From a virus (Duplodnaviria; Heunggongvirae; Uroviricota; Caudoviricetes), in IMG/VR virus record IMGVR_UViG_2671180415_000014: DNA of 12,437 nucleotides; one strand, given 5' to 3'. Positions 1 to 12,338 of the stretch are shown piece after piece (position 1 is the stretch's first letter; every line of letters begins with the position of its first letter). The notes under the pieces are model-generated. The model was not told the origin of the DNA. It saw nothing but the letters and a program-made list of their open reading frames with translations, and did no database searches. The position numbers and the translations under genes are program-made.

Positions 1-201
1 CTACATATAGTGCTATATACAGGGCTATATAACGATATATAGATGCTTGGTCACATGGTGTAACTATCAAACCACTTAACAATTTCCTACGTGAAAGTTA
101 GAAAGTGATGGTTACAGTTACCCTCCTAAAATCTTCATAGTTGATTCGGTTAGTTGGGCTTGTACCAACCCCTAATCAACCTCATAGCTCCTTCATAACC
201 A

Positions 202-227
202 GTCTTAAAAGGACTTCCTTTTGAGAC
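202..227. promoter_or_regulatory. 26-bp imperfect palindrome with 12-2-12 architecture (gtcttaaaagga-ct-tccttttgagac); candidate serine-recombinase crossover site or operator
   Basis: Read directly: the two 12-bp half-sites are reverse complements at 11 of 12 positions around a 2-bp centre, the same geometry as hix/gix/cix-type sites. Sequence similarity to canonical hix half-sites is only partial. Confidence 0.35.
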
Positions 228-232
228 ACTTT

Positions 233-262
233 CAACGTAACGGTAGAATGCACCCTCAAGTA
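233..262 (+). repeat. 30-bp direct repeat, copy 1 (caacgtaacggtagaatgcaccctcaagta), abutting the left edge of an N-masked block
   Basis: Exact 30/30 identity with 475-504. The copy ends exactly at the mask boundary, so the true repeat may be longer. Confidence 0.9.
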
Positions 263-474
263 NNNNNNNNNNNNNNNNNNNNNNNNNNNNNNNNNNNNNN
301 NNNNNNNNNNNNNNNNNNNNNNNNNNNNNNNNNNNNNNNNNNNNNNNNNNNNNNNNNNNNNNNNNNNNNNNNNNNNNNNNNNNNNNNNNNNNNNNNNNNN
401 NNNNNNNNNNNNNNNNNNNNNNNNNNNNNNNNNNNNNNNNNNNNNNNNNNNNNNNNNNNNNNNNNNNNNNNNNN

Positions 475-504
475 CAACGTAACGGTAGAATGCACCCTCA
501 AGTA
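475..504 (+). repeat. 30-bp direct repeat, copy 2, abutting the right edge of the N-masked block
   Basis: Exact identity with 233-262 at a 242-bp offset. Its left neighbour is masked, so the repeat may extend further. Confidence 0.9.
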
Positions 505-530
505 GTCTCAAAAGGTTGTTTTTGGATTAT
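505..530. promoter_or_regulatory. Second candidate recombination/operator site: a half-site (gtctcaaaagg) matching the 202-227 palindrome, followed by a degenerate partner half (tttttggattat)
   Basis: 505-515 is the exact reverse complement of 217-227. The partner half loosely resembles the GGTTTTTGATAA-type hix/gix half-site. It lies about 50 bp upstream of the recombinase start. Confidence 0.25.
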
Positions 531-566
531 GAGACAGCTAAGCTTATGAGACTAACTTTTGAGACT
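527..566 (+). repeat. Three direct copies of a tNtgagac motif (527-535, 545-553, 558-566) just upstream of the recombinase start
   Basis: Read directly. The same gagac/gtctc core occurs in the half-sites at 202-227 and 505-515. Possible protein-binding sites. Confidence 0.3.
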
Positions 567-581
567 TCTAAGGGGAACATT

Positions 582-1133
582 ATGGCGATACTTGGATATT
601 GCAGGGTGAGTACAGATGACCAATCCATCACTAACCAGCAAATGCAAATTGAAGAGGCAGGGTACAACATTGCTAAATGGTTCGCTGATGAAGCTGTCAG
701 TGGTTCTGTCAAAGCTTCTTTAAGAAACGGTTTCAGCAGTTTGTTAGCTTATGCACGAGAAGGTGACACCGTAGTTGTGGTAGCTGTAGACCGTCTTGGA
801 CGTGACACAATTGATGTGTTATCAACGGTTAAAGCGCTACAGGCTAAAGGTGTGACAGTTATCAGCCTTAGAGAAGGATTTGACTTATCAAGCGCTATGG
901 GTGAAGCAATGTTAGGCATTATGTCAACGTTGGCACAGCTTGAAAGAAGCTTGATAGCAGAGCGTAGAAAGGCTGGTATTGAACGTGCTAAAGCTGAAGG
1001 GGTACATATGGGAAGACCTGTAAAAGCTTCTTCAGAGGCTGTACAGATGCTTATTTCACAAGGTAAAACGAGGTTGCAGATTCAGGAAGAGCTAGGAATC
1101 TCTAGAGCAACTTATTACAGACTTGCTAAATAA
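582..1133 (+). CDS. Small serine recombinase, DNA invertase/resolvase family (Hin/Gin/Cin/Pin-like), 183 aa
   Basis: N-terminus MAILGYCRVSTDDQS carries the catalytic-serine motif; VDRLGRD motif present; C-terminal GRP...ISRATYYRLA matches the resolvase-type HTH. RBS aagggga sits 6-7 nt upstream of the ATG at 582. The six-frame ORF beginning at 516 is an upstream read-through. Confidence 0.85.
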   Translation: MAILGYCRVSTDDQSITNQQMQIEEAGYNIAKWFADEAVSGSVKASLRNGFSSLLAYAREGDTVVVVAVDRLGRDTIDVLSTVKALQAKGVTVISLREGFDLSSAMGEAMLGIMSTLAQLERSLIAERRKAGIERAKAEGVHMGRPVKASSEAVQMLISQGKTRLQIQEELGISRATYYRLAK

Positions 1134-1501
1134 GTTACTGAATAGTTACATGGATGTAGCTGATATTTGGCTTTTTTGCCAAGGGGGTCACATAGCTGGT
1201 GTGACGGGTACTAAACACGTATACATCATGAGGTAGATTCTACCGAATCAACTAGACAGATATTTTCGAAGATTCGGGGAAGATGAGATTCAAAGAGGGC
1301 TAGTCATTTTTTATAAAAATTTTCAGACTCTGAAAAGTTACTGTACAGAATATATACAGATATCTTTAAAGTATCTGTAAAAACTTTTAAGATAAAAGAT
1401 AGATATCCCAGAAAGGATATCCGTTTAGAAAACCTGTTAAGCATCTCTTAAAAGAGAGTAAACCTTGTCAAGAGTGATTGCAATAAAAATTTTTATTTCT
1501 T

Positions 1502-2164
1502 ATGTCAATTGAGCATATTTTAATCGGGAAGCATCATGGGGGTTCTGATTACTGGAGAACTCCATTTTTGTTATTTAAGAACTTACACCGTGAATTTATT
1601 TTCAGTCTAGATGGTGCTGCAACTGAGCATGACACGCTGTTACCACGATTCACCGATGATATAAGCCGTCAATCATGGGTTAGTGAAAAGGTCTTCTGTA
1701 ACCCGCCGTACAGCGATATTCCGTCGTTCCTCTTAAAAGCGTCTGAAGCGGATTTAGTAGCTTTCCTGATACCGCATAGAGCCAACACCAGCTACTGGCT
1801 TAGGCACATTTACAGCAATAACCACTGTCATGAAATCCGTATTCTTCATCGTGCAGTTAAATACCTTCCACCAGCAGGCCATAACGGGCTTACTATTCGT
1901 TCACCGTTTCCTAGTGCAGTCGTTGTTTTTAAAAAAGAACCACGTAAGCACGAAATTACACAGACGGTTTGCTGTGGTGACACGCTATTACCGTTAACCA
2001 TCATTAACAGAGGAGGCTTGAGAGGAAGACCCACCATTTACCCACCTGAGACGCTCGACAGCTTCATAAAACTATACAGGCAAGGAAAACCCATTAAGTG
2101 CATTGCAGATGCTCTCAGAATGCCTCTGAGCACGTCATACAGGATTGCTCAAAGGTTGAGCTAA
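1502..2164 (+). CDS. Phage-type DNA N6-adenine methyltransferase with a C-terminal resolvase-like HTH extension, 220 aa
   Basis: WRTP...FSLDGAAT...FCNPPYS contains the (D/N)PPY motif typical of small phage N6A methyltransferases. The C-terminal roughly 60 aa (GRPTIYPPETLDSFIKLYRQGKPIKCIADALRMPLSTSYRIAQRL) parallels the recombinase HTH (GRP...QGKT..IQEELGISRATYYRLA). No obvious Shine-Dalgarno before the ATG. Confidence 0.7.
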   Translation: MSIEHILIGKHHGGSDYWRTPFLLFKNLHREFIFSLDGAATEHDTLLPRFTDDISRQSWVSEKVFCNPPYSDIPSFLLKASEADLVAFLIPHRANTSYWLRHIYSNNHCHEIRILHRAVKYLPPAGHNGLTIRSPFPSAVVVFKKEPRKHEITQTVCCGDTLLPLTIINRGGLRGRPTIYPPETLDSFIKLYRQGKPIKCIADALRMPLSTSYRIAQRLS

Positions 2165-2546
2165 AATTCTCATAAATATGGTCATTTACAAGATAGGTGA
2201 TTCAGATATTAAGAAGTATCCCTGTGAACAATAAATGACCAATCAGTAATTATTCTGTGAAATAATTGTTGCAATTTATAATCACATCTGTTATAGTTTT
2301 TATATGGGGTGATAAAAGAACTCAGAACATTAAGAGGTTACAACGTTGGGAGGCGTCAGGGTATTGACAGATTTTCACGGCCTCTTATTCAATCAAGGCT
2401 TTTCCTTTTGCTGTTAATACTCGCGTAATCGCTCAGGCTTCTGAGTTCCTTTATCAGTCCATCTTCTAATTAATTCACTCCCTCTGGGGTTGGTCACTAT
2501 ACGTGGTCAGCCCTTTCTTTGTTTTATTTTTAAAAAGGAAAATATA

Positions 2547-3368
2547 ATGGAAAAATTCCACATGTTTGATGACCGTATTTATCAGATGACTAATGGCGTT
2601 AAAGCTGCCGACCGTATTATTTACACTGTCATGTTGAATGAACAAAAGTTTTATCACGATAAGGGGCAATATTATACCCCTTCATATGCTCATCTTGGTC
2701 AGTATGCTGGAATCACAAGAACATCCGTGATTGCATGTATGAAACAACTTGAGGCACATGGTTTAATCAAGAAAACTAACGTTGCAAGCAATCAGTGTGT
2801 TATTAAAGTTTATTCACTTGATGAAGTACCGGAGGTTTTAACAGAGCTTACAGCTAAGGAAGCCAGAAAGGCAAAGCTGGAGTCTAAAGTTACTCAGTCA
2901 GTCAAGAAAGATGACCCACTGAGTCAAAATTCTTTACCCACTGAGTCAAAATTTTTTACTCAGTCAGTCAAAATCTTTGACACGTATAATAACAGTAATA
3001 ACAAGAAAGAACTTATTAATAACAATAAAGAAGATGACTTTGAAGAAGAATATTTTAAGAAGGGAGCTTCGCTCTGTGATTCACATGAATGTGATTCTCT
3101 TGGTATTGAAGAGGCTATTAAAGAGACTGTTNNNNNNNNNNNNNNNNNNNNNNNNNNNNNNNNNNNNNNNNNNNNNNNNNNNNNNNNNNNNNNNNNNNNN
3201 NNNNNNNNNNNNNNNNNNNNNNNNNNNNNNNNNNNNNNNNNNNNNNNNNNNNNNNNNNNNNNNNNNNNNNNNNNNNNNNNNNNNNNNNNNNNNNNNNNNN
3301 NNNNNNNNNNNNNNNNNNNNNNNNNNNNNNNNNNNNNNNNNNNNNNNNNNNNNNNNNNNNNACTTTGA
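2547..3368 (+). CDS. Phage replication initiator (lambda O-like / replisome organizer) with winged-HTH N-terminal domain; 3' part N-masked
   Basis: RBS aaaaggaa then ATG at 2547. N-terminal domain with HTH-like segment YAHLGQYAGITRTSVIACMKQLEAHGLIKK. Iterons and an AT-rich tract lie inside the coding region as in lambda O. The frame runs into the mask at 3132-3361 and the in-frame stop is at 3366-3368; the true 3' end is uncertain. Confidence 0.6.
   Translation: MEKFHMFDDRIYQMTNGVKAADRIIYTVMLNEQKFYHDKGQYYTPSYAHLGQYAGITRTSVIACMKQLEAHGLIKKTNVASNQCVIKVYSLDEVPEVLTELTAKEARKAKLESKVTQSVKKDDPLSQNSLPTESKFFTQSVKIFDTYNNSNNKKELINNNKEDDFEEEYFKKGASLCDSHECDSLGIEEAIKETVXXXXXXXXXXXXXXXXXXXXXXXXXXXXXXXXXXXXXXXXXXXXXXXXXXXXXXXXXXXXXXXXXXXXXXXXXXXXXL
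2891..2978 (+). repeat. Four tandem 22-bp iterons (agtcaa core at 2900, 2922, 2944, 2966); putative replication origin
   Basis: Units tactcagtcagtcaagaaagat / gacccactgagtcaaaattctt / tacccactgagtcaaaattttt / tactcagtcagtcaaaatcttt, with an exact 22-bp period. Outer pair and inner pair are each near-identical. Confidence 0.8.
2979..3060 (+). promoter_or_regulatory. AT-rich tract immediately after the iterons; candidate DNA-unwinding element of the origin
   Basis: The run acacgtataataacagtaataacaagaaagaacttattaataacaataaagaagatgac is strongly A/T-rich and directly follows the iterons, the lambda ori-type arrangement. Confidence 0.5.
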
Positions 3369-3474
3369 TGATAGTGACGATGATTTTACTTTTACACCAA
3401 AAAAGAAAACTCACACCGAGCCAAAGAAAGAAAAAGTTAAAGTCAGACGTGTTTATGGTGGAGGAATGTTTTAA
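3362..3474 (+). CDS. 3' end of a coding frame emerging from the masked block (FDDSDDDFTFTPKKKTHTEPKKEKVKVRRVYGGGMF); either the C-terminus of the initiator or a gene starting inside the mask
   Basis: Open in frame +1 relative to the initiator frame. Its stop TAA overlaps the next ATG (TAATG at 3472-3476), typical translational coupling. The start is hidden by the mask. Confidence 0.35.
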
Positions 3475-3770
3475 TGAAAACTTATAATGGCGAGAGAAAA
3501 TACCGTGACTATTTACTCAGACGTTACAGCATTTCTCGTGAAGGTTACTTGATGAAAGATACTCACGGGGAAGTTTACCGGATTCGACCGAAGAAAGAAG
3601 GGAGGGATTATTATTTCGTCGATGATGTGACAGATTTAAAGATTGACGCTTTGAAGTTTGCGGTGCTGTATCATTACGATTTATGGGATTCAGTCCACCA
3701 GCTACGATTAAAAGACGGTGACCCCGGTAATCTGAGGGCCACCAATATTATCAAGGGAAAGTGCCGGTAA
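3474..3770 (+). CDS. Hypothetical protein, 98 aa
   Basis: ATG overlaps the upstream stop; ggtggagga lies 8 nt upstream. No family recognised by eye. Confidence 0.5.
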   Translation: MKTYNGERKYRDYLLRRYSISREGYLMKDTHGEVYRIRPKKEGRDYYFVDDVTDLKIDALKFAVLYHYDLWDSVHQLRLKDGDPGNLRATNIIKGKCR

Positions 3771-3779
3771 GGCCACCAG

Positions 3780-3956
3780 CTATTTATTTACTGAAATCTC
3801 TATCTCAACACGAAGAAGTTTAAGTCGAATTGTAAGCTTTGTCTTTTTTGTAATGACTCGATTCATAACGCAAAACACCAATAGCACAATAAATACCGCA
3901 AAGCCCAACGAGCTAAAACGATGAGATTCAATAATTGCTGTGAAAAAATCATGCAT
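3780..3956 (-). CDS. Small single-pass membrane protein, 58 aa, on the opposite strand
   Basis: Minus-strand ATG at 3954-3956 preceded by aaaggaaa. Hydrophobic stretch LGFAVFIVLLVFCVM followed by basic residues. Convergent with the upstream plus-strand gene. The longer ORF to 3986 would need a GTG start. Confidence 0.4.
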   Translation of the reverse strand: MHDFFTAIIESHRFSSLGFAVFIVLLVFCVMNRVITKKTKLTIRLKLLRVEIEISVNK

Positions 3957-4093
3957 TAATTTTCCTTTTGTGAAAGGAAACAGCACCTGTATCAGCCCCT
4001 ACAACCATAGTATCATGTAAATGAGGTACTGACAATATGTTAAATAGATGTTAAGATTGTAGTATGAGTAAGAGATTTAAGGAGATTTTTACA

Positions 4094-4384
4094 ATGACTC
4101 ACACAGTTACGCGCCTTTTGCCAGAGGCATTTGAACGACTGGCAGCAATCAAAGCCAAATATCCCGATATGAAGCACACAGCGCTTGTTGGGGAGATTTT
4201 AAAAGAGTCGGTAAACCTTAGCCCTTTCGATAACGTTAAGGGCGTCGCAGAGGGTTCTAAGGCCATCAGAATCACAACGGGCCAACTGGAACTACTCAAA
4301 GCACAGTCCGCAGTAGCAGGTTGCTCAATGATTCAGGTGTTAAGCGCTAAGGTCCATCAACTGGCGGATAGATTGGAGGTTTAA
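4094..4384 (+). CDS. Hypothetical protein, 96 aa (possible small DNA-binding regulator)
   Basis: Strong RBS taaggag 9 nt upstream of the ATG at 4094; stop overlaps the next start. The sequence is faintly ribbon-helix-helix-like, which is a weak impression only. Confidence 0.5.
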   Translation: MTHTVTRLLPEAFERLAAIKAKYPDMKHTALVGEILKESVNLSPFDNVKGVAEGSKAIRITTGQLELLKAQSAVAGCSMIQVLSAKVHQLADRLEV

Positions 4385-4605
4385 TGTGTTATAGGTTCCA
4401 ATATTCCACACTTGGCCGCCACCTAATCAGACAGAATTTAGCAGATGCTGAATTTGAAGATGTGACCCTCAAAGCAAACAAACGATTAAAACCCTCTCAA
4501 ATCCACCAGCTTAAACACGAATTAAAGCCACTGGTAATACTCGACTATAACGACCCTGAACAGCTTGAGCAGGGAATTAAGCTTATTTCTGAATGGGGTG
4601 CTTGA
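4384..4605 (+). CDS. Hypothetical protein, 73 aa
   Basis: TAATG stop/start overlap with the upstream gene, preceded by ggagg. Its stop TGA overlaps the next ATG at 4605. Confidence 0.45.
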   Translation: MCYRFQYSTLGRHLIRQNLADAEFEDVTLKANKRLKPSQIHQLKHELKPLVILDYNDPEQLEQGIKLISEWGA

Positions 4606-4847
4606 TGAAAACNNNNNNNNNNNNNNNNNNNNNNNNNNNNNNNNNNNNNNNNNNNNNNNNNNNNNNNNNNNNNNNNNNNNNNNNNNNNNNNNNNNNNNNN
4701 NNNNNNNNNNNNNNNNNNNNNNNNNNNNNNNNNNNNNNNNNNNNNNNNNNNNNNNNNNNNNNNNNNNNNNNNNNNNNNNNNNNNNNNNNNNNNNNNNNNN
4801 NNNNNNNNNNNNNNNNNNNNNNNNNNNNNNNNNNNNAACGTTTTTAA
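4605..4847 (+). CDS. Hypothetical protein, about 80 aa, almost entirely N-masked
   Basis: ATGA overlap with the upstream stop (4603-4607). The frame exits the mask and stops at 4845-4847. Content cannot be assessed. Confidence 0.3.
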   Translation: MKXXXXXXXXXXXXXXXXXXXXXXXXXXXXXXXXXXXXXXXXXXXXXXXXXXXXXXXXXXXXXXXXXXXXXXXXXXXXRF

Positions 4848-4939
4848 GCCCCTAATCAGGGTAACTTAGGGAATCGCCTTAAGTGGTCTAAAAAAGGGGT
4901 TAAAACGTCTTAGAATGCGATACAGGAAGGATTTTAAAA

Positions 4940-5245
4940 ATGAATTACCCAATGCAAATTATGGTTGACCAAGAAACCATGAATTGGTTGATTGACCTGA
5001 ACAGGTCGGGCTTTAATATCTATTTCATGCATTGTTTTGAAGCGTCAACGTATATTGACAAGCATATAATCAACGAAATTAAACTTGGTGACTATGTTCA
5101 CAAGCTGGAAGTAACAGACCCATACAATAAGCGCTTTATCATTGAAGAGTGCAATCGACTTGATTTAAGCCCTGAGCAATTATTGAAGCTGAATGTATTC
5201 TTGACCTATCAGAATGAATTAAACCCTTACAGCGAGGTGATGTAA
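4940..5245 (+). CDS. Hypothetical protein, 101 aa
   Basis: RBS aggaagg 9 nt upstream of the ATG at 4940. No family recognised. Confidence 0.5.
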   Translation: MNYPMQIMVDQETMNWLIDLNRSGFNIYFMHCFEASTYIDKHIINEIKLGDYVHKLEVTDPYNKRFIIEECNRLDLSPEQLLKLNVFLTYQNELNPYSEVM

Positions 5246-5322
5246 TGACACTCGTTATTCTCTGGATGACTTTAGGGTTATTTGTTGGTTGCTGGGTAGG
5301 TAATACGGTAAATAAGAATTGA
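5245..5322 (+). CDS. Very small hydrophobic peptide, 25 aa (MTLVILWMTLGLFVGCWVGNTVNKN)
   Basis: TAATG overlap with the upstream stop; gaggtg lies 5 nt upstream. A single hydrophobic helix-length segment. Too short for the supplied ORF track. Confidence 0.3.
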   Translation: MTLVILWMTLGLFVGCWVGNTVNKN

Positions 5323-5346
5323 TGTTACCAATCTGTTAAAAAGCTG

Positions 5347-5375
5347 TTGACAAATAACCTTAAGCATGAGATGAT
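5347..5375 (+). promoter_or_regulatory. Candidate sigma70-type promoter (TTGACA, 17-bp spacer, GATGAT)
   Basis: Perfect -35 hexamer at 5347-5352 and a 4/6 -10 at 5370-5375, in the intergenic gap upstream of the gene that starts within or near the next mask. Confidence 0.3.
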
Positions 5376-5382
5376 GGTAATA

Positions 5383-5399
5383 GGGAAGAGCAACTCTTC
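5383..5399. promoter_or_regulatory. 17-bp perfect palindrome ggaagag-caa-ctcttcc just downstream of the putative -10; candidate operator
   Basis: Read directly: 7-bp arms are exact reverse complements around a 3-bp centre. Confidence 0.3.
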
Positions 5400-5756
5400 C
5401 TGAATTAAACTATTAATCATTCTACATCAATGATAGTTATTCTGAAAGGTGCAATGCTTTTCGCTACATGACCTTTCAGGTNNNNNNNNNNNNNNNNNNN
5501 NNNNNNNNNNNNNNNNNNNNNNNNNNNNNNNNNNNNNNNNNNNNNNNNNNNNNNNNNNNNNNNNNNNNNNNNNNNNNNNNNNNNNNNNNNNNNNNNNNNN
5601 NNNNNNNNNNNNNNNNNNNNNNNNNNNNNNNNNNNNNNNNNNNNNNNNNNNNNNNNNNNNNNNNNNNNNNNNNNNNNNNNNNNNNNNNNNNNNNNNNNNN
5701 NNNNNNNNNNNNNNNNNNNNNNNNNNNNNNNNNNNNNNNNNNNNNNNNNNNNNNNN

Positions 5757-6439
5757 AAGTGATTGATAGCTTCAGTGACTGGTCGCCACAGACTGAACAT
5801 CCAGCTATCACTATTCAGCGTAAAGAGCATGACAAGCGTATTGAGCTTGAGCAATCGCTAAAGATGTCACCAAAAACAACCATCTTTGTGTCTCCTGAGC
5901 CTCAAGAGATGCCTGATATTTGCAAGAGTGAAGCATTACTTGAGCTTGAAAAGAAATATTACCAACTGCTGAAAGAACAGCGCCTTAGATTAGATGACGC
6001 TTACAGCAAAGTTACCTTGATGCAATCAGCTATTGAGCCGTCAGAATTTGAGATTCAGGATGAATTGTCACAGAAACCATTTGTCTATTACCAATACGAA
6101 GATAATGATGGTTTTGGTACTTTTCAAGAAAACGTCGCAGCCGTGATTAGTAGTCTTCCTGCTGGACATCGAATTGTGAAGATGGTTAAGGCATCAAGAG
6201 GTGCTGGTCAGTTTATTTACATGACTAATAAGAGCGATGAAGAACTCGCTGAAATTGCTAGACAGAACATCTTGGCATCACGTAACAAGCAACTTGATAA
6301 TGTTAAGTTGTATCTCTCAAGAGAGCTTCAGGCTATGAAAGAGCTTGTGAAAGAATATGAAGATGCTAAGAAGATTGCTATGCAGGCTGATATTGAGCAG
6401 CTTACGAAGATTTCTAGCAAATATGCAAAGGCTATTTAA
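5757..6439 (+). CDS. Hypothetical phage protein; only the C-terminal 227 aa are visible, the start is in or before the masked block 5482-5756
   Basis: Long open frame with coding-like composition ending at TAA 6437-6439. First gene after the putative promoter. No family recognised. Confidence 0.55.
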
Positions 6440-6463
6440 TTAATAATTAAAAGGTGGTGGTGA

Positions 6464-6670
6464 ATGATTGATTTAACAGAACGCTATGAGCTTATTAAAG
6501 CAATTAGTGAACGATTGAAAGAACAACCCAACAAACCAAAACGAATCAAATCATTCACCTCCTCTAAGCAAAAGAATAGAATCAGGAAAATAGCTAAGTG
6601 GTGTCTTGATAAATTACCAAGTGATTGTCAGATTGTTGGTGAAGATGGTAATTATTATCTGGTTAGGTAA
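6464..6670 (+). CDS. Hypothetical protein, 68 aa
   Basis: RBS aggtgg 6 nt upstream of the ATG at 6464. Basic, lysine-rich middle region. Confidence 0.45.
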   Translation: MIDLTERYELIKAISERLKEQPNKPKRIKSFTSSKQKNRIRKIAKWCLDKLPSDCQIVGEDGNYYLVR

Positions 6671-6768
6671 CAAGATTGGTTGGGTGAAAATCTACGGGAG
6701 AGATTATCGAGTGATATCGGTAGTCTTTCCCTTTTTCGTATATGAACACTTAAAGAGGTGAAACATGA

Positions 6769-8949
6769 ATGAGCAAATTCACAGTTGATAGTTTTATCGT
6801 TGAACTTAGTTTCAGTGAAAACGTTATTAAGGGCTTGCAAAGAGTTGAAAAGGCAGCTTTGCAGTCAGCACAAAGAATTGAACGCAATTTGAATAGAGCG
6901 TTTAAGGTCGATACCAAGCAACTTGACAGCAATCTGACAAGTTCTTTAGGGCAGCTTGAAAGGAAGTTTAATAAGACCTTTGACAAGATTGAGCAGAGAG
7001 CAAGAAGCACAAAAGCATTTCAGTTTGCCACCAGATTTAATGACACTGTTAATCCTCCAAAACAATCAAGGCAACCACGAATTAGCGGAAACAGAGCAAT
7101 CACAGCAGCGCATAGCGTGAATATGTCTAAGCTTGGTGATATTAATCCGCTGATGGCTAAAATGTTTAAAGCACAGTATTACAGCTTAAGCGGTAAGGCT
7201 GGTAATATTGGAAGTGAAAAGTTTAACGCTGAACTTGCAAAATTAAATCAATCTCTTCGTGAAACGTTGAATAAACTCAGGTCACAGACAAAGACCGCCA
7301 GCATTAACAATACAAGCGACGCATTTAATAATCTTGCAAGCAATGCGATTAAATTATCTGGTGCATTTTACTCTGTGATGGGTGCTCTTAACGCTTACAA
7401 GGCCATTATGAATGCAGGTCTTAAACGAGATTCCGCACAGAGAGCCGCTAAGTTTGTACTTGGTGATAAAGCATCTGAAGCTGAGGTATTTATTCGAAAT
7501 TTAGCAGACAAGACAGGTCTTAATATCTCTGAAGGGCTATCAAGCTACGCTAAGTTTGCAGCAGGTGCTCAGGGTTCTATGTCACAGGAACAGACACAGG
7601 AGCTATTTGGTAATGCAACGGCTATGAGTCGCTTAATGGGGCTTTCTAACGATGAGCTAAACGGCATTTTGAGAGCATTTGAGCAGATGGCGAGCAAGGG
7701 CAAGATTCAGGCTGAGGAATTACGTGGGCAGTTAGGTGACCGTATGGCTGGTGCATTTAAGCTATTCGCTGAAGCATTGGGTATGACTGCTACAGAGCTT
7801 GATGCAGCCATGAAAAACGGGAAGGTACTTTCCGCTGATACTCTCCCTAAAGTCGCTAAACAGATGGGCTTGATGATTGATAAAGCGGGTGGCTGGGCTG
7901 AAGTCACTAAGAGCACTCAGACAGCTTTAGGTAAGTTAGCAAACAATTGGGATGATACGATGGTGAAAATCTTCTCAGGTTCACAGGATGAGCTAAACGG
8001 CTTCTTATCCAGCCTGAGTAACCTGCTTAGTGAAATGGGGATGAGTTCTTCTATCGCTGGTGATGCTATCGGTGGACTTATCGACATGCTTAAAGCTGGT
8101 GTAGATGATATTCGCGTATTCAATAACACCATTGAAGGCTGGATTTTACAGACTAAGAAGTTCTATTACAGCCTTGATGACACTAAACGAAAACTACTTG
8201 ATGAAGTCGGTGATGGTTTTATCAACTTCGTCAAAGGTCTTGCTATAGCGTTATCTGCAAAGACGCTATTCAGTGCTACTACAGGGGTTATGAACCTGAC
8301 AAGAGCAATCACAACGTTAGGTACAAGAGCTAATCAGGTGGCTGGTCAGGTAGCTACTGGTAAAGGTGGTGGAAAACTGAAAGGTGTAGCTGGTGGTGTA
8401 GGTAGTGCTCTTGCAATTGGTTATGCTGATGACGGTTATGAAACAGCGTTAGCATTAGCTTCAATGATTCCACAAATCAGAGGCGTCACTCTTGGTTTAT
8501 ATGCATTGAAGAAAGCACTGGATTTTATGAATCAGGAAGTAGTCAAAAACGCTAATATGCATCCGTCTGGGGTAGGTGTGGGTAGTGACTTTAATCCCGT
8601 GTATTCTGGTGACCCTAATAAACCGAATATGATTAACGAAGGATGGAGTAGAATTTTTAGTTCAATGGGTGAATTGTTTAACAATGCCACAATGAATATT
8701 GCAAGATTCAATCATCCAGAGTTAAACAACATTAAGCAAGATTCAGCATTAACGAGTGCAGATATTCAGGGTCTGAGGGATGAAATTAGTGCTTTGAGTA
8801 AGCGTATTCAGGAGCCAGTGAAAGTTTCACTTGGTGGTCAAGTTGTCGTTCGACCAGATGAACCATCTTTCTTTACTTTCAATCAATCAGCTAATGACCA
8901 GTTCACGCAGGATATGCTCTTAAGTTCAAGCTATCCAGAGGAAGAATGA
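6769..8949 (+). CDS. Phage tail tape measure protein, 726 aa
   Basis: RBS agaggtg 8 nt upstream. Long helical N-terminal part; the segment LRAFEQMASKGKIQAEELRGQLGDRMAGAFKLFAEALGMTATELDAAMKNGKVLSADTLPKVAKQMG matches my recollection of the conserved tape-measure domain; glycine-rich hydrophobic segment GGGKLKGVAGGVGSALAIGYA. Size fits a tape measure. Confidence 0.75.
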   Translation: MSKFTVDSFIVELSFSENVIKGLQRVEKAALQSAQRIERNLNRAFKVDTKQLDSNLTSSLGQLERKFNKTFDKIEQRARSTKAFQFATRFNDTVNPPKQSRQPRISGNRAITAAHSVNMSKLGDINPLMAKMFKAQYYSLSGKAGNIGSEKFNAELAKLNQSLRETLNKLRSQTKTASINNTSDAFNNLASNAIKLSGAFYSVMGALNAYKAIMNAGLKRDSAQRAAKFVLGDKASEAEVFIRNLADKTGLNISEGLSSYAKFAAGAQGSMSQEQTQELFGNATAMSRLMGLSNDELNGILRAFEQMASKGKIQAEELRGQLGDRMAGAFKLFAEALGMTATELDAAMKNGKVLSADTLPKVAKQMGLMIDKAGGWAEVTKSTQTALGKLANNWDDTMVKIFSGSQDELNGFLSSLSNLLSEMGMSSSIAGDAIGGLIDMLKAGVDDIRVFNNTIEGWILQTKKFYYSLDDTKRKLLDEVGDGFINFVKGLAIALSAKTLFSATTGVMNLTRAITTLGTRANQVAGQVATGKGGGKLKGVAGGVGSALAIGYADDGYETALALASMIPQIRGVTLGLYALKKALDFMNQEVVKNANMHPSGVGVGSDFNPVYSGDPNKPNMINEGWSRIFSSMGELFNNATMNIARFNHPELNNIKQDSALTSADIQGLRDEISALSKRIQEPVKVSLGGQVVVRPDEPSFFTFNQSANDQFTQDMLLSSSYPEEE

Positions 8950-8961
8950 TTTAACGGTGTT

Positions 8962-9014
8962 CTACGTGAATAAAGCAAAGTTAATACCCACACCAAAAAT
9001 TATTTTTCACGTAG
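8962..9014. promoter_or_regulatory. Inverted repeat ctacgtgaa ... ttcacgtag (9-13 bp arms, about 35-bp spacer) after the tape-measure gene
   Basis: Read directly. Not followed by a T-run, so not a canonical intrinsic terminator. Confidence 0.3.
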
Positions 9015-9044
9015 CTCACGCTTAACAGAGAAAATACATATATA

Positions 9045-9850
<806 letters not shown>

Positions 9851-10000
9851 TTTGGCATCCATCTCCGATCACAGTTTGGCATCACAATCGATCACGATTT
9901 GGCATACTTCCGATCATTGATTGGAATTCGCCAGTCACTCCGGGAATTAACTCTTTTCACCACAGTCTCCATTGCCGTGTTTAAACCAGTGGAGACGTCA

Positions 10001-11566
10001 ATGTCCAAAAAGAGAAAATCCAGGAGCACTATGGAAACTTGTTTTAAGATCCTTCAGCTCAAGTTCGATAAGAAGCTGACTAACCGTTGTATCGGACTGA
10101 CGTTACACATCAGCGCCTCAACCGTTTTTGAGGTTCTTGCCCGCTTCAAAGCCTCTTCTCTGTCATGGCCATTACCTGCGGATATATCCCATGACACGCT
10201 GGAGAAACTCATTTTCCCGCCCAAAGACACCTCTGCGTCAGAGCTTGTTATGCCTGACATGCTGTACTTCGATACGGAAATGAGAAAACCTGGCGTGACG
10301 CGCCAACTGTTGTGGATGGAATACAAGGCACAGGCGGGTGACAAAGCGATGGGATACTCACACTTCTGCCGTTGCTACCGGAAGTGGAAAAAAACGCGAC
10401 GCCTCTCCATGCGACAGGAGCATCGTGCTGGCGAAAAGCTCTTTATCGACTTCTGTGGTCCTACGGTCCCTGTTATTAATCCGGACACCGGAGAGATACG
10501 CCGCGTGGCAATCTTCGTGGCTGTAATGGGGGCGTCCAACTATACCTATGTTGAAGCGTGCGAAGGTCAGGACATGATGTCATGGTTAAATGCCCACAGC
10601 CGTTGCCTGACCTTCCTGGGCGGCGTACCGAAGCTGCTCATCCCCGATAACCTCAGAAGCGCAGTGAAAAAAGCCGATCGCTATGAGCCTGTCATCAACG
10701 ACAGTTATCAGGCGCTGGCTGAGCACTATGGCACGGTTATTATCCCGGCCCGCCCGCGCAAACCTAAAGATAAACCAAAAGCAGAAAACGGCGTCCTCAT
10801 CGTCGAGCGATGGCTTCTTGCCCGCATCCGTAATGAAACCTTCCACACGCTCAGGGCGCTGAATGCACGCCTTCGGGAGTTGCTGACGGACATGAATAAC
10901 CGACCAATGAAGGGATACGGTAATCAAACCCGCGCAGAACGCTTCCGCATGCTGGATGCACCAGCACTCTCTCCGCTGCCTCTGGAGCCTTATGAATACA
11001 CGGAATACAAAGCCGTGAAGGTTGGCCCTGACTACCACGTTGAATATGCCCGTCACTGGTACTCCGTTCCACACGAACTGGTCGGTCAGCGTCTGTCACT
11101 GAAGGTGGGGCAGTCGGTGGTACAGCTCTGGCACAAGGGGCAGTGTGTGGCGCAACATCCGCGCAGCACACATGAATATAAACACACAACCAATCCGCTT
11201 CACATGCCAGAACGCCACCGGCGGCATGGGACATGGACACCGGAACGCCTTATCGAGCAGGGAAACCGTACAGGTCCGTCCACAGGCCGGGTGGTTGAAT
11301 CCATGCTGAAAGCCAAACCCCATCCGGAGCTGGCTTACCGTGCAGTCCTGGGTCTGCTGGCACTTCAGAAAAAATACGGCCCGGAACGGCTGGAAAAGGC
11401 CTGTTACGTTGCCCTGCACTATAACGCCCCGGACAGACGCTTTATCGACAATCTGCTGCGTCATCATCGGGATAACGTTGAGCTTCCGTTATCCCGCCAG
11501 GGCGAACAACATCCGGCATATGCTTCAGAGCATGAAAACCTGCGTGGTCCTGGCTACTACCACTGA
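10001..11566 (+). CDS. istA: IS21-family transposase IstA, 521 aa
   Basis: RBS ggaga 5 nt upstream of the ATG at 10001; N-terminal HTH region; long DDE-type core; followed 16 bp later by istB. The ORF-track start at 9899 lies inside the terminal repeats and is unlikely. Confidence 0.85.
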   Translation: MSKKRKSRSTMETCFKILQLKFDKKLTNRCIGLTLHISASTVFEVLARFKASSLSWPLPADISHDTLEKLIFPPKDTSASELVMPDMLYFDTEMRKPGVTRQLLWMEYKAQAGDKAMGYSHFCRCYRKWKKTRRLSMRQEHRAGEKLFIDFCGPTVPVINPDTGEIRRVAIFVAVMGASNYTYVEACEGQDMMSWLNAHSRCLTFLGGVPKLLIPDNLRSAVKKADRYEPVINDSYQALAEHYGTVIIPARPRKPKDKPKAENGVLIVERWLLARIRNETFHTLRALNARLRELLTDMNNRPMKGYGNQTRAERFRMLDAPALSPLPLEPYEYTEYKAVKVGPDYHVEYARHWYSVPHELVGQRLSLKVGQSVVQLWHKGQCVAQHPRSTHEYKHTTNPLHMPERHRRHGTWTPERLIEQGNRTGPSTGRVVESMLKAKPHPELAYRAVLGLLALQKKYGPERLEKACYVALHYNAPDRRFIDNLLRHHRDNVELPLSRQGEQHPAYASEHENLRGPGYYH

Positions 11567-11582
11567 CAGAAGGAACAACCGT

Positions 11583-12338
11583 ATGAGTGATAATCTGTTA
11601 AACAAACTGACCCAACTGAAACTCCCGGCGATGGCCGGGAGCCTGATACGGCAACGGGAAACGCCTCAGACTTACGACGAACTGTCGTTCGAGGAAAGGC
11701 TGACACTGCTGGTTGATGACGAGCTTCTGAGCAGAGAAAACAGTCGTGTGGCACGGTTGAGAAAAAATGCCTGCCTGAAATATCAGGCAACACCGGAAGG
11801 GCTGCGTTATCCGGCCTCAAGAGGTCTGCGGGCTGAACAGATGAGGGAACTGCTGAACGGCCACTACATAATCCACAGGAAAAACCTACTGATAACCGGT
11901 CCGACAGGATGCGGTAAGAGCTGGATAGCCAATGCGCTGGGCGAACAGGCATGTCGACAGAAATACAGCGTCCGGTACTGTAGAACCGGGCGATTACTGG
12001 AACAGTTGGCTCAGGGACGTGTTGATGGCAGTTGGCTGAAATATCTGAAACAGTTGCAAAAAATACAGGTTCTAATCCTGGACGATCTGGGGCTGGAACA
12101 GTTAAGTAACGCCCAGTGTAATGACCTTCTGGAGATCACAGAGGATCGTTACGGACAAAGCAGCACGATAGTGGTAAGCCAGTTCCCGGTAGATAAATGG
12201 CATGGTCTGATGGAGAACCCAACAACAGCAGATGCCATCCTGGACAGACTGGTACATAACTCACACAGAGTGGTCCTTCAGGGAGAGTCCCTGAGGAAAA
12301 ATCCCCCGACAGTGGAAAGCAGCGAAAAAACGAGTTAA
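11583..12338 (+). CDS. istB: IS21-family ATP-binding helper protein IstB, 251 aa
   Basis: Walker A GPTGCGKS and Walker B VLILDDLG; RBS aggaa 7 nt upstream. The ORF-track start at 11340 overlaps istA in another frame and is unlikely. Confidence 0.85.
   Translation: MSDNLLNKLTQLKLPAMAGSLIRQRETPQTYDELSFEERLTLLVDDELLSRENSRVARLRKNACLKYQATPEGLRYPASRGLRAEQMRELLNGHYIIHRKNLLITGPTGCGKSWIANALGEQACRQKYSVRYCRTGRLLEQLAQGRVDGSWLKYLKQLQKIQVLILDDLGLEQLSNAQCNDLLEITEDRYGQSSTIVVSQFPVDKWHGLMENPTTADAILDRLVHNSHRVVLQGESLRKNPPTVESSEKTS

Follow-up and report, generated by a model that had tools for sequence, protein, structure and literature searches.

The gene considered here lies at 1502..2164 on the plus strand of a 12,437-nucleotide stretch of viral DNA (Caudoviricetes; IMG/VR record IMGVR_UViG_2671180415_000014), which as a whole is called the window below. 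In the list of open reading frames (ORFs) it encodes a protein of 220 amino acids (aa) with a TAA stop codon at 2162-2164, and full-length 220-aa homologues with 85-95% identity are present in Escherichia coli, Shigella and E. albertii. The ORF joins a Dam-type N6-adenine methyltransferase (MTase) of the PF05869 family to a resolvase-type helix-turn-helix (HTH), and its product is called MTase-HTH from here on. A first-pass annotation, made from the letters alone, had proposed both halves: domain search and fold bear out the Dam-type N-terminus, while clade-wide HTH_7 matches, profiles against the PDB and AlphaFold2/Foldseek comparisons bear out the C-terminal domain.

The MTase domain spans aa 15-145 (1544..1936, plus strand) and matches PF05869 with E=4e-15 and 56.3 bits against a cutoff of 28.1, over profile positions 9-145 of 169; another member of the fused clade, P0123, reaches 80 bits over positions 9-164. 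In PHROGs it matches phrog_111, DNA methyltransferase (2e-24), and PADLOC returns an orphan MTase ('oMTase', 1e-13). The TIGR01712 equivalog of NCBIfam is not reached (40.4 bits, cutoff 97.05), with aa 15-99 alone being aligned. Catalytic motif IV, NPPY, was read from the sequence at aa 67-70 (1700..1711, plus strand) within FCNPPYS (aa 65-71), and the upstream D-x-A-A motif is LDGAA at aa 36-40. Residues N67, P68, P69, D37 and A39 are invariant in alignments of fused and unfused family members. An AlphaFold2 model built on a 16-sequence alignment (predicted local distance difference test, pLDDT, 75; predicted template modelling score, pTM, 0.70) shows an alpha/beta MTase core at aa 18-157, whose top matches among solved structures are the N6-adenine MTases PCIF1 (E=1e-4, 3.3-4 Å, ~155 columns), KsgA/Dim1, HsdM and CcrM. 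No obvious Shine-Dalgarno sequence precedes the start codon (tttttatttcttATG, 1461-1501); the N-terminus is nonetheless kept in distant homologues, and E. coli copies agree at 99.6% over a 60-bp stretch here.

In the alignment, family members that have no fusion end around aa 145-150, so that the last ~70 aa of MTase-HTH are a true addition and not, as one could have objected to the first-pass proposal, an ordinary C-terminus of the family. The addition begins with a clade-specific linker (aa 150-174; 1949..2023, plus strand) comprising an extra strand, a C(C)xDT..L segment and RGG, which is conserved inside the fused clade, missing in unfused members and modelled with a pLDDT of 53-66; in the full model a low-confidence linker at aa 158-180 separates two confident domains. 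The DNA-binding domain of serine-recombinase type follows at aa 175-220 (2024..2161, plus strand) and consists of a GRP arm and a three-helix HTH (helices 182-193, 198-205 and 209-219; pLDDT 77-91, or 77-93 when the model of the domain alone is counted in). All nine fused-clade members match HTH_7 (best E=8e-7), and precomputed Pfam assigns PF02796 to several homologues. A profile of the C-terminal 56 aa searched against the PDB finds Sin/Bin3 (2r0q, E=8e-7) in an alignment that takes in the GRPxLY arm, and also gamma-delta (1res, 9e-5), Tn3 resolvase (1.4e-4) and, weakly, Hin (0.27). When the domain is modelled alone (pLDDT 81), Sin 2r0q and Hin 1ijw rank first by Foldseek, Hin superposing at 1.9 Å over 41 residues (TMt 0.70), with E-values that are weak for this 56-aa query. 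Pfam finds no Resolvase catalytic domain (PF00239) in the protein, and MTase-HTH is therefore not a recombinase.

This combination of known kinds of module (a phage Dam methyltransferase, a recombinase HTH and the plan of regulatory methyltransferase fusions) is rare. A homologue search over 1.84 billion representative proteins, grouped in 50%-identity clusters, returned 2560 family matches, of which the best 150 clusters were inspected: the alignment runs through aa ~219, as expected of the fusion, in about 8 of these 150, and some 95% of the best-matching PF05869 clusters have no such ~70-aa extension of linker and HTH. The survey thus shows a fusion that is real and uncommon. The proteins with a named source come from E. 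coli, Shigella, E. albertii and Erwinia typographi, all Enterobacterales, and a genome scan extends the fusion to Winslowiella, Franconibacter and two Pantoea. Of 5426 complete E. coli genomes, 420 (~8%) carry the locus, which is chromosomal there. Phage and plasmid collections yielded no full-length fused homologue, all matches being confined to the Dam domain. Databases hold the fused protein as 'DNA methylase' or 'DNA N-6-adenine-methyltransferase', with one RefSeq name for a 222-aa type reading 'helix-turn-helix domain-containing protein', and our literature search found no paper on the fusion nor any mentioning both Pfam accessions. The fusion is, in short, present in databases yet unremarked.

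The element that accompanies the gene from lineage to lineage is a palindrome of 28 bp, [T/G/A]TCYC-N18-GRGA[A/C/T], which adjoins MTase-HTH in seven of eight lineages. Its consensus is TCYCATA-N12-TATGRGA, with A/T-rich inner flanks that typically give TCTCATA...TATGAGA. The window holds an imperfect version at 2167..2194, TTCTCATAA-N10-TTACAAGAT, located at +4 after the stop codon and with the same 18-nt spacing as in the other lineages; we take it as the candidate site of the HTH. At the same +4 position the E. coli 222-aa type (L008-L010 and L022) carries a perfect copy, TTCTCATA-N12-TATGAGAA. Elsewhere the element lies at +14 after the stop in Erwinia (L002), at +18 in Winslowiella (L003), and at +18/+19 and again at +80/+82 in the Franconibacter type (L004, L021), where both arms are changed symmetrically to GTCCCAT..ATGGGAC; it straddles the stop codon in Pantoea borealis (L005) and sits ~40-65 nt upstream of the start in the Pantoea piersonii type (L006, L007). 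The strict form, TCYC-N18-GRGA, is found at most 25 nt from the stop codon in five lineages, compared with ~0.04 occurrences per kb elsewhere (243 kb of background). Spacing is constant at 18 nt across lineages while the spacer sequences are unrelated. The hexamer ATGAGA itself is not enriched across the islands, and what matters is position and pairing beside the gene.

The palindrome measures 28 bp and has an A/T tract inside an outer block of 5 bp. Its geometry resembles that of the sites bound by dimeric serine recombinases, for instance hix (26 bp) and site I of gamma-delta (28 bp), which present an outer block to be read in the major groove and an inner A/T tract for the arm. Two further candidates were dropped: the ACAGATA and CAGATAT-N6-GTATC motifs are no commoner than in shuffled sequence and are absent from other lineages, and a GATGAGATTCAA box at 1283-1294 has its second copy (near 3921) inside a minus-strand ORF, and was treated as chance.

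Sequence conservation around the gene was compared in eight E. coli copies of the locus by mean pairwise identity. The most conserved DNA comprises ~240 bp upstream of the start codon (94-99.6%) and the HTH-coding end together with ~130 bp downstream (95-98%), against 81-92% in the MTase-coding part and 70-80% in the replication gene that follows. The upstream block (1279..1501) is a non-coding, A/T-rich leader that stands out from a 70-85% background and holds an ACAGATA palindrome (1356-1378) and a GATATC palindrome (1405-1424). The downstream block (2165..2298), likewise non-coding, includes the 28-bp palindrome and an inverted repeat, I8 (2179-2188/2232-2241), and closes on a sigma-70-like promoter that points towards the replication gene (TTGCAA-17-TATAGT, TG upstream; 2269-2297), so that the candidate palindrome lies ~75 bp upstream of the promoter-like site. 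In other lineages the non-coding DNA downstream of the gene is iteron-rich, with at least four GGTGTATTA repeats in Erwinia (L002 10780-10900) and the two 28-bp copies in Franconibacter (L004 10687-10775), which suggests that an origin or control region begins directly after the MTase-HTH gene.

Within E. coli the MTase domain has a nonsynonymous divergence (dN) of 0.095 and a synonymous divergence (dS) of 0.36, a dN/dS of ~0.26 that places the domain under purifying selection; the HTH gives dN=0.010 and dS=0.058. Comparing the 222-aa type with some 220-aa alleles, identity is 95-97% at aa 61-125, falls to 35-47% at aa 126-157 and is ~59% in the HTH. This mosaic (window 1519-1998 against L009 4076-4744 and L014/L015) indicates recombination breakpoints inside the MTase gene. 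One recombinant, L022, combines an upstream block of the 220 type with both the HTH and the palindrome of the 222 type. From the mosaic identities and L022 it follows that the catalytic core behaves as an exchangeable module, while the HTH stays with the adjacent DNA.

These observations are compatible with an orphan MTase whose added domain reads the site beside its own gene, and we give roughly even chances to a reading in which the enzyme is active and the HTH binds the adjacent operator-like palindrome ahead of the replication gene, in the manner of M.SsoII. The PF05869 enzyme is probably active, since its catalytic motifs are invariant and its domain is under purifying selection. A flexible linker of ~25 aa connects it to the minor-groove GRP arm and the three-helix HTH, which, probably as a dimer, most likely binds the palindrome at 2167-2194. 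We infer that such binding would exert operator-type control over the gene itself, the downstream replication promoter, or both, while the catalytic domain would methylate the DNA of the element as phage Dam enzymes do. A precedent exists in M.SsoII and M.Ecl18kI, MTases to which a flexible linker attaches a distinct domain that binds an operator (PMC3978073, PMC2760811). They are alike in the two-domain plan, the linker and the palindrome by the MTase's own gene (a candidate operator in our case), but theirs are C5-cytosine MTases of complete restriction-modification systems with an N-terminal HTH, whereas MTase-HTH is an orphan N6-adenine enzyme with a C-terminal HTH_7-type domain and no restriction gene nearby.

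Several points weigh against operator binding. The HTH_7 match of the window protein itself (PF02796, aa 175-215, E=1.9e-4) scores 21.9 bits, slightly under the 23.8 cutoff, and the right arm of the window lineage's palindrome is degenerate by one mismatch, AAGA for GRGA. The pattern was defined post hoc on the same loci, which inflates its statistics, and in L020/P0123, the only truly new lineage examined after the definition, the palindrome is absent; that locus has instead a shorter CCATAT-TAC-ATATGG palindrome and a terminator. No mapping was found between differences in the recognition helix and differences in the palindrome arms. The inverted repeat could also form a hairpin in RNA or DNA, or serve a different protein, encoded by the island or its helper, as a site. 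Lastly, recent recombination or a DNA element acting in cis, instead of constraint on the protein, could account for the low dS of the HTH region.

The same architecture and site can be read differently. If the HTH docks a weakly specific MTase at the palindrome, adenines in nearby sequences controlling replication or packaging would be marked, and the island thereby licensed or blocked; the flexible linker would give the reach, and in several lineages the site opens repeat- or iteron-rich DNA ahead of the replication gene. Adenine methylation is known to control the P1 plasmid origin and cleavage at P1 pac. Set against such tethered methylation, PF05869 enzymes function without any extra domain, so that the HTH is not needed for catalysis, and the MTase core is freely swapped between HTH types, which fits a generic module better than a site-tuned one; we regard this alternative as unlikely, though worth keeping in view. 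Carried further, it becomes a 'DamID-like' enzyme whose HTH dimer parks the MTase on the palindrome, in the replication-control region of a hitherto undescribed satellite of FelixO1-like phages, with local N6-methyladenine licensing or braking replication or packaging during helper infection, a speculation to which we attach rather more doubt.

Alternatively, the HTH may do no more than increase processivity or the non-specific affinity for DNA, much like the C-terminal domain of CcrM, and so allow a fast-replicating mobile element to be methylated in time to evade restriction; the palindrome would then be unrelated, perhaps a hairpin or a site for some other protein. An orphan MTase in a mobile element that has no restriction partner, and the L020 lineage with no palindrome, both suit this idea. 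To our knowledge, however, every recombinase characterised so far uses its HTH_7-type domain and GRP arm in a sequence-specific way, and both the near-invariance of the HTH within E. coli and the palindrome in seven of eight lineages argue for a specific partner site, which makes generic affinity quite improbable. Still less likely, in our judgement, is that the protein is foremost a factor controlling transcription, excision or replication of the island, its MTase being inactive or secondary: conservation is far stronger in the HTH than in the MTase domain, and one RefSeq name for the 222-aa type mentions just the helix-turn-helix, but the catalytic motifs are invariant and the dN/dS of the MTase domain is 0.26.

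The first-pass annotation had also proposed that MTase-HTH acts at recombinase-type sites, or in an epigenetic switch coupled to its neighbour. A small serine recombinase of the resolvase/invertase family does adjoin the gene, as stated there (582..1133, plus strand; Resolvase 1e-41 plus HTH_7). Its PHROGs match is phrog_125, DNA invertase (2e-57), and its closest solved structures are the gamma-delta and Tn3 resolvases (3e-30), then Gin (8e-22). Two candidate sites read from the sequence, both already listed in the first-pass annotation (the first of them there as 202-227), lie upstream of it: a hix/res-like palindrome at 200..225, GTCTTAAAAGGA-CT-TCCTTTTGAGAC, conserved in L001, and a hix/gix-like one at 505..530, GTCTCAAAAGGT-TG-TTTTTGGATTAT, followed by TTATGAGAC repeats at 528-535 and 545-552. 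In L001 the two hix-like sites are merely ~60 bp apart. A 29-nt direct repeat, caacgtaacggtagaatgcaccctcaagt, at 234-262 and 475-503 of the window brackets N-masked DNA (263-474); in L001 the repeat occurs once and nothing is inserted, which leaves the window with 241 bp extra between the recombinase-type sites.

The recombinase is an accessory gene of these islands. It is absent, with the same MTase present, from E. coli islands H111, H112, H114, H115, H117 and others as well as L016 and L019, it is absent beside the 222-aa E. coli variant, and it is not adjacent to MTase-HTH in Erwinia, Winslowiella, Franconibacter or Pantoea. Recombinase-less E. coli islands have ~1.2 kb of ORF-free DNA at its position; the interval from the chromosomal flank to the MTase gene is ~1.2-1.5 kb there, with no ORF longer than about 60 aa (L016 1990-3300; L009 2590-4075), and might hold an att site, a non-coding RNA, pac or ori. 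As for the 'motif-for-motif' alignment that had been claimed between the two HTHs, the resemblance is real (14 identities in 43 positions, E=0.004, with an (S/A)T.YR recognition helix in both), but it is of family level only. A fused-clade profile gives the neighbour 13.5 bits, compared with 32.1 for Sin and ~25 for gamma-delta resolvase, and the best plasmid matches of the MTase C-terminus are staphylococcal Sin/Bin-type recombinases. Since the MTase HTH is no closer to that of its neighbour than to those of unrelated resolvases, there was no local domain duplication. The TTATGAGAC and TTTTGAGAC recombinase-proximal repeats have TGAGA in common with the palindrome half-site TTATGAGAA, and the MTase HTH may cross-recognise them.

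A functional tie to the adjacent recombinase is thus not supported, because the gene is missing from many islands, because the HTH is nearer to Sin and gamma-delta than to the neighbour, and because the co-occurring element is a different 28-bp palindrome beside the MTase, not the sites at 200-225 and 505-530. That the HTH recognises those two sites, with the MTase modulating recombination in a switch, has in our view the slimmest chance of all: the genes are adjacent here and in some of the E. coli islands, both proteins carry HTH_7-type domains with (S/A)T.YR helices and the TGAGA element recurs, but many islands with the same MTase have no recombinase, no other genus examined places the two side by side, and in the recombinase sites TCTC and GAGA are separated by 21 nt, not by 18.

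The gene order had suggested Mu gin-mom, and the analogy is apt for the arrangement at the element end, a serine recombinase and then a DNA-modification gene; it goes no further, Mom being a different enzyme, no com-like gene being seen here and the adjacency being facultative. In Mu-like prophages adenine MTases (Hin1523, Nme1821, Hia5) do occupy the mom position (PMC3299994). That report describes Hia5-type enzymes with DPPY and FxGxG motifs and a target recognition domain (TRD) region, and reports no HTH fusion for them. We considered these non-specific enzymes (Hia5, Hin1523) as relatives of MTase-HTH and set the idea aside, given that the paper describes DPPY, FxGxG and TRD and leaves PF05869 unmentioned; we claim no link. 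Phage Dam MTases (PF05869; TIGR01712, phage_N6A_met) are alike in the N-terminal 145 aa, NPPY, size, fold and orphan status in a mobile element, and differ by the ~70-aa linker and HTH and by the sub-equivalog TIGR01712 score (40 vs 97 bits). The DNA-binding domains of Sin/Bin3, gamma-delta, Tn3 resolvase and Hin share the GRP(x)LY arm, the three-helix HTH and the dimer geometry of the candidate site, and small serine recombinases differ in their Resolvase catalytic domain, which MTase-HTH does not have. Minimal phage Dam enzymes are normally free-standing, and the fusion with its candidate cognate site offers a simple natural system for the effects of a DNA-binding domain on an MTase; the redirection of a methyltransferase by such a domain is the principle of engineered DamID. 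The gene is common, occurring in ~8% of complete E. coli genomes; many carrier strains may already have long-read data, in which case a methylation signature could be sought there.

In E. coli and Erwiniaceae, MTase-HTH is conserved as the first gene of a family of integrative islands of 10-11 kb, where it precedes non-coding DNA rich in repeats and the replication gene. In L001 it is carried by an insertion of ~11 kb between yciI and tonB, with the order small recombinase, MTase-HTH, replication-initiator-like gene, small ORFs, tape measure, baseplate protein and large serine recombinase. Sister islands are found next to ymdF and within a DUF72 gene that neighbours cmoA/cmoB, and a Pantoea island shares both this cmoA/cmoB neighbourhood and the gene order. 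The islands extend over 1-9800 in the window, 20000-31014 in L001 and 2600-13706 in L009; the large serine recombinase, an integrase, is present in L001 and L009 and falls outside the window.

The replication-initiator-like gene (2547..3368, plus strand), which encodes an HTH and is partly N-masked, matches PHROG replication-initiation families (2e-11 to 4e-8) and gives weak DnaD_N and HTH_36 matches in Pfam. The tape measure protein (6769..8949, plus strand; PF20155 2e-21, phrog_4036 4e-93) has as its best full-length matches the equal-length tape measures of Ounavirinae, at ~29% identity. A baseplate/Dit-like gene (9106..9799, plus strand), located with the L001 protein as tblastn query, occupies two reading frames in the window (9106-9252 and 9269-9799) and is thus broken; the intact L001 protein is 71% identical to Ounavirinae proteins over 98% of its length, and Pfam Dit_like is matched by the baseplate protein of a sister island. 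A non-coding stretch at 1174..1269, between the recombinase and MTase-HTH genes, is common to FelixO1-like (Ounavirinae) phages (47-96 nt at 81-100% identity), where it matches unannotated regions of Moogle, JH2, BPS15Q2 and others. The phage counterpart belongs to an unannotated Ounavirinae region of ~1.6 kb, often near record ends, with the core ACATCATGAGGTAGATTCTACCGAATCAACTAGACAGATATTTT. Rfam (at the gathering threshold) and tRNA scans of the window returned nothing, so the stretch does not derive from a tRNA or other known RNA; a promoter, or a mimic of pac or ori, could lie here.

Because the Ounavirinae-like tape measure, the Dit protein and the near-identical non-coding stretch come together in it, the island is a candidate satellite or hijacker of FelixO1-like virulent phages. 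The island has neither capsid genes nor a restriction gene, and PADLOC finds no defence system around the gene beyond the orphan MTase match. The PLE (Vibrio cholerae, ICP1) and PICMI satellites are similar in size (~10-11 kb), in the large serine recombinase integrase, in the replication initiator and in virulent-phage-like genes and DNA; they differ in that the island here carries tail genes (tape measure, Dit-like) and not capsid-remodelling ones. Our literature search found no paper on satellites of FelixO1-like phages, and the island suggests that this phage group, in wide use for Salmonella and E. coli typing and therapy, has a satellite or hijacker not described before.

Some minor features complete the picture. 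In Franconibacter helveticus (L004 7768-10669) MTase-HTH comes directly after an fljB-like flagellin and fljA (Flag1_repress, 5e-65), at a contig end, and in Pantoea piersonii (L006 10001-13936) it is followed after 1.8 kb by a flagellin gene and preceded, 4 kb upstream, by a gene with a resolvase domain; this flagellar phase-variation neighbourhood could be an insertion hot spot or could be functional. Further N-masked stretches of the window, at ~3200-3360 (in the replication-initiator gene), ~4610-4840 and ~5480-5760, all within island genes or between them, may hide tandem repeats or iterons. After the Dit-like gene the window continues into an IS21-type element, with an IstA-like ORF at 9899-11566 (rve and Mu-transposase C-terminal domain) and IstB (PF01695, 1e-59) within 11340-12338.

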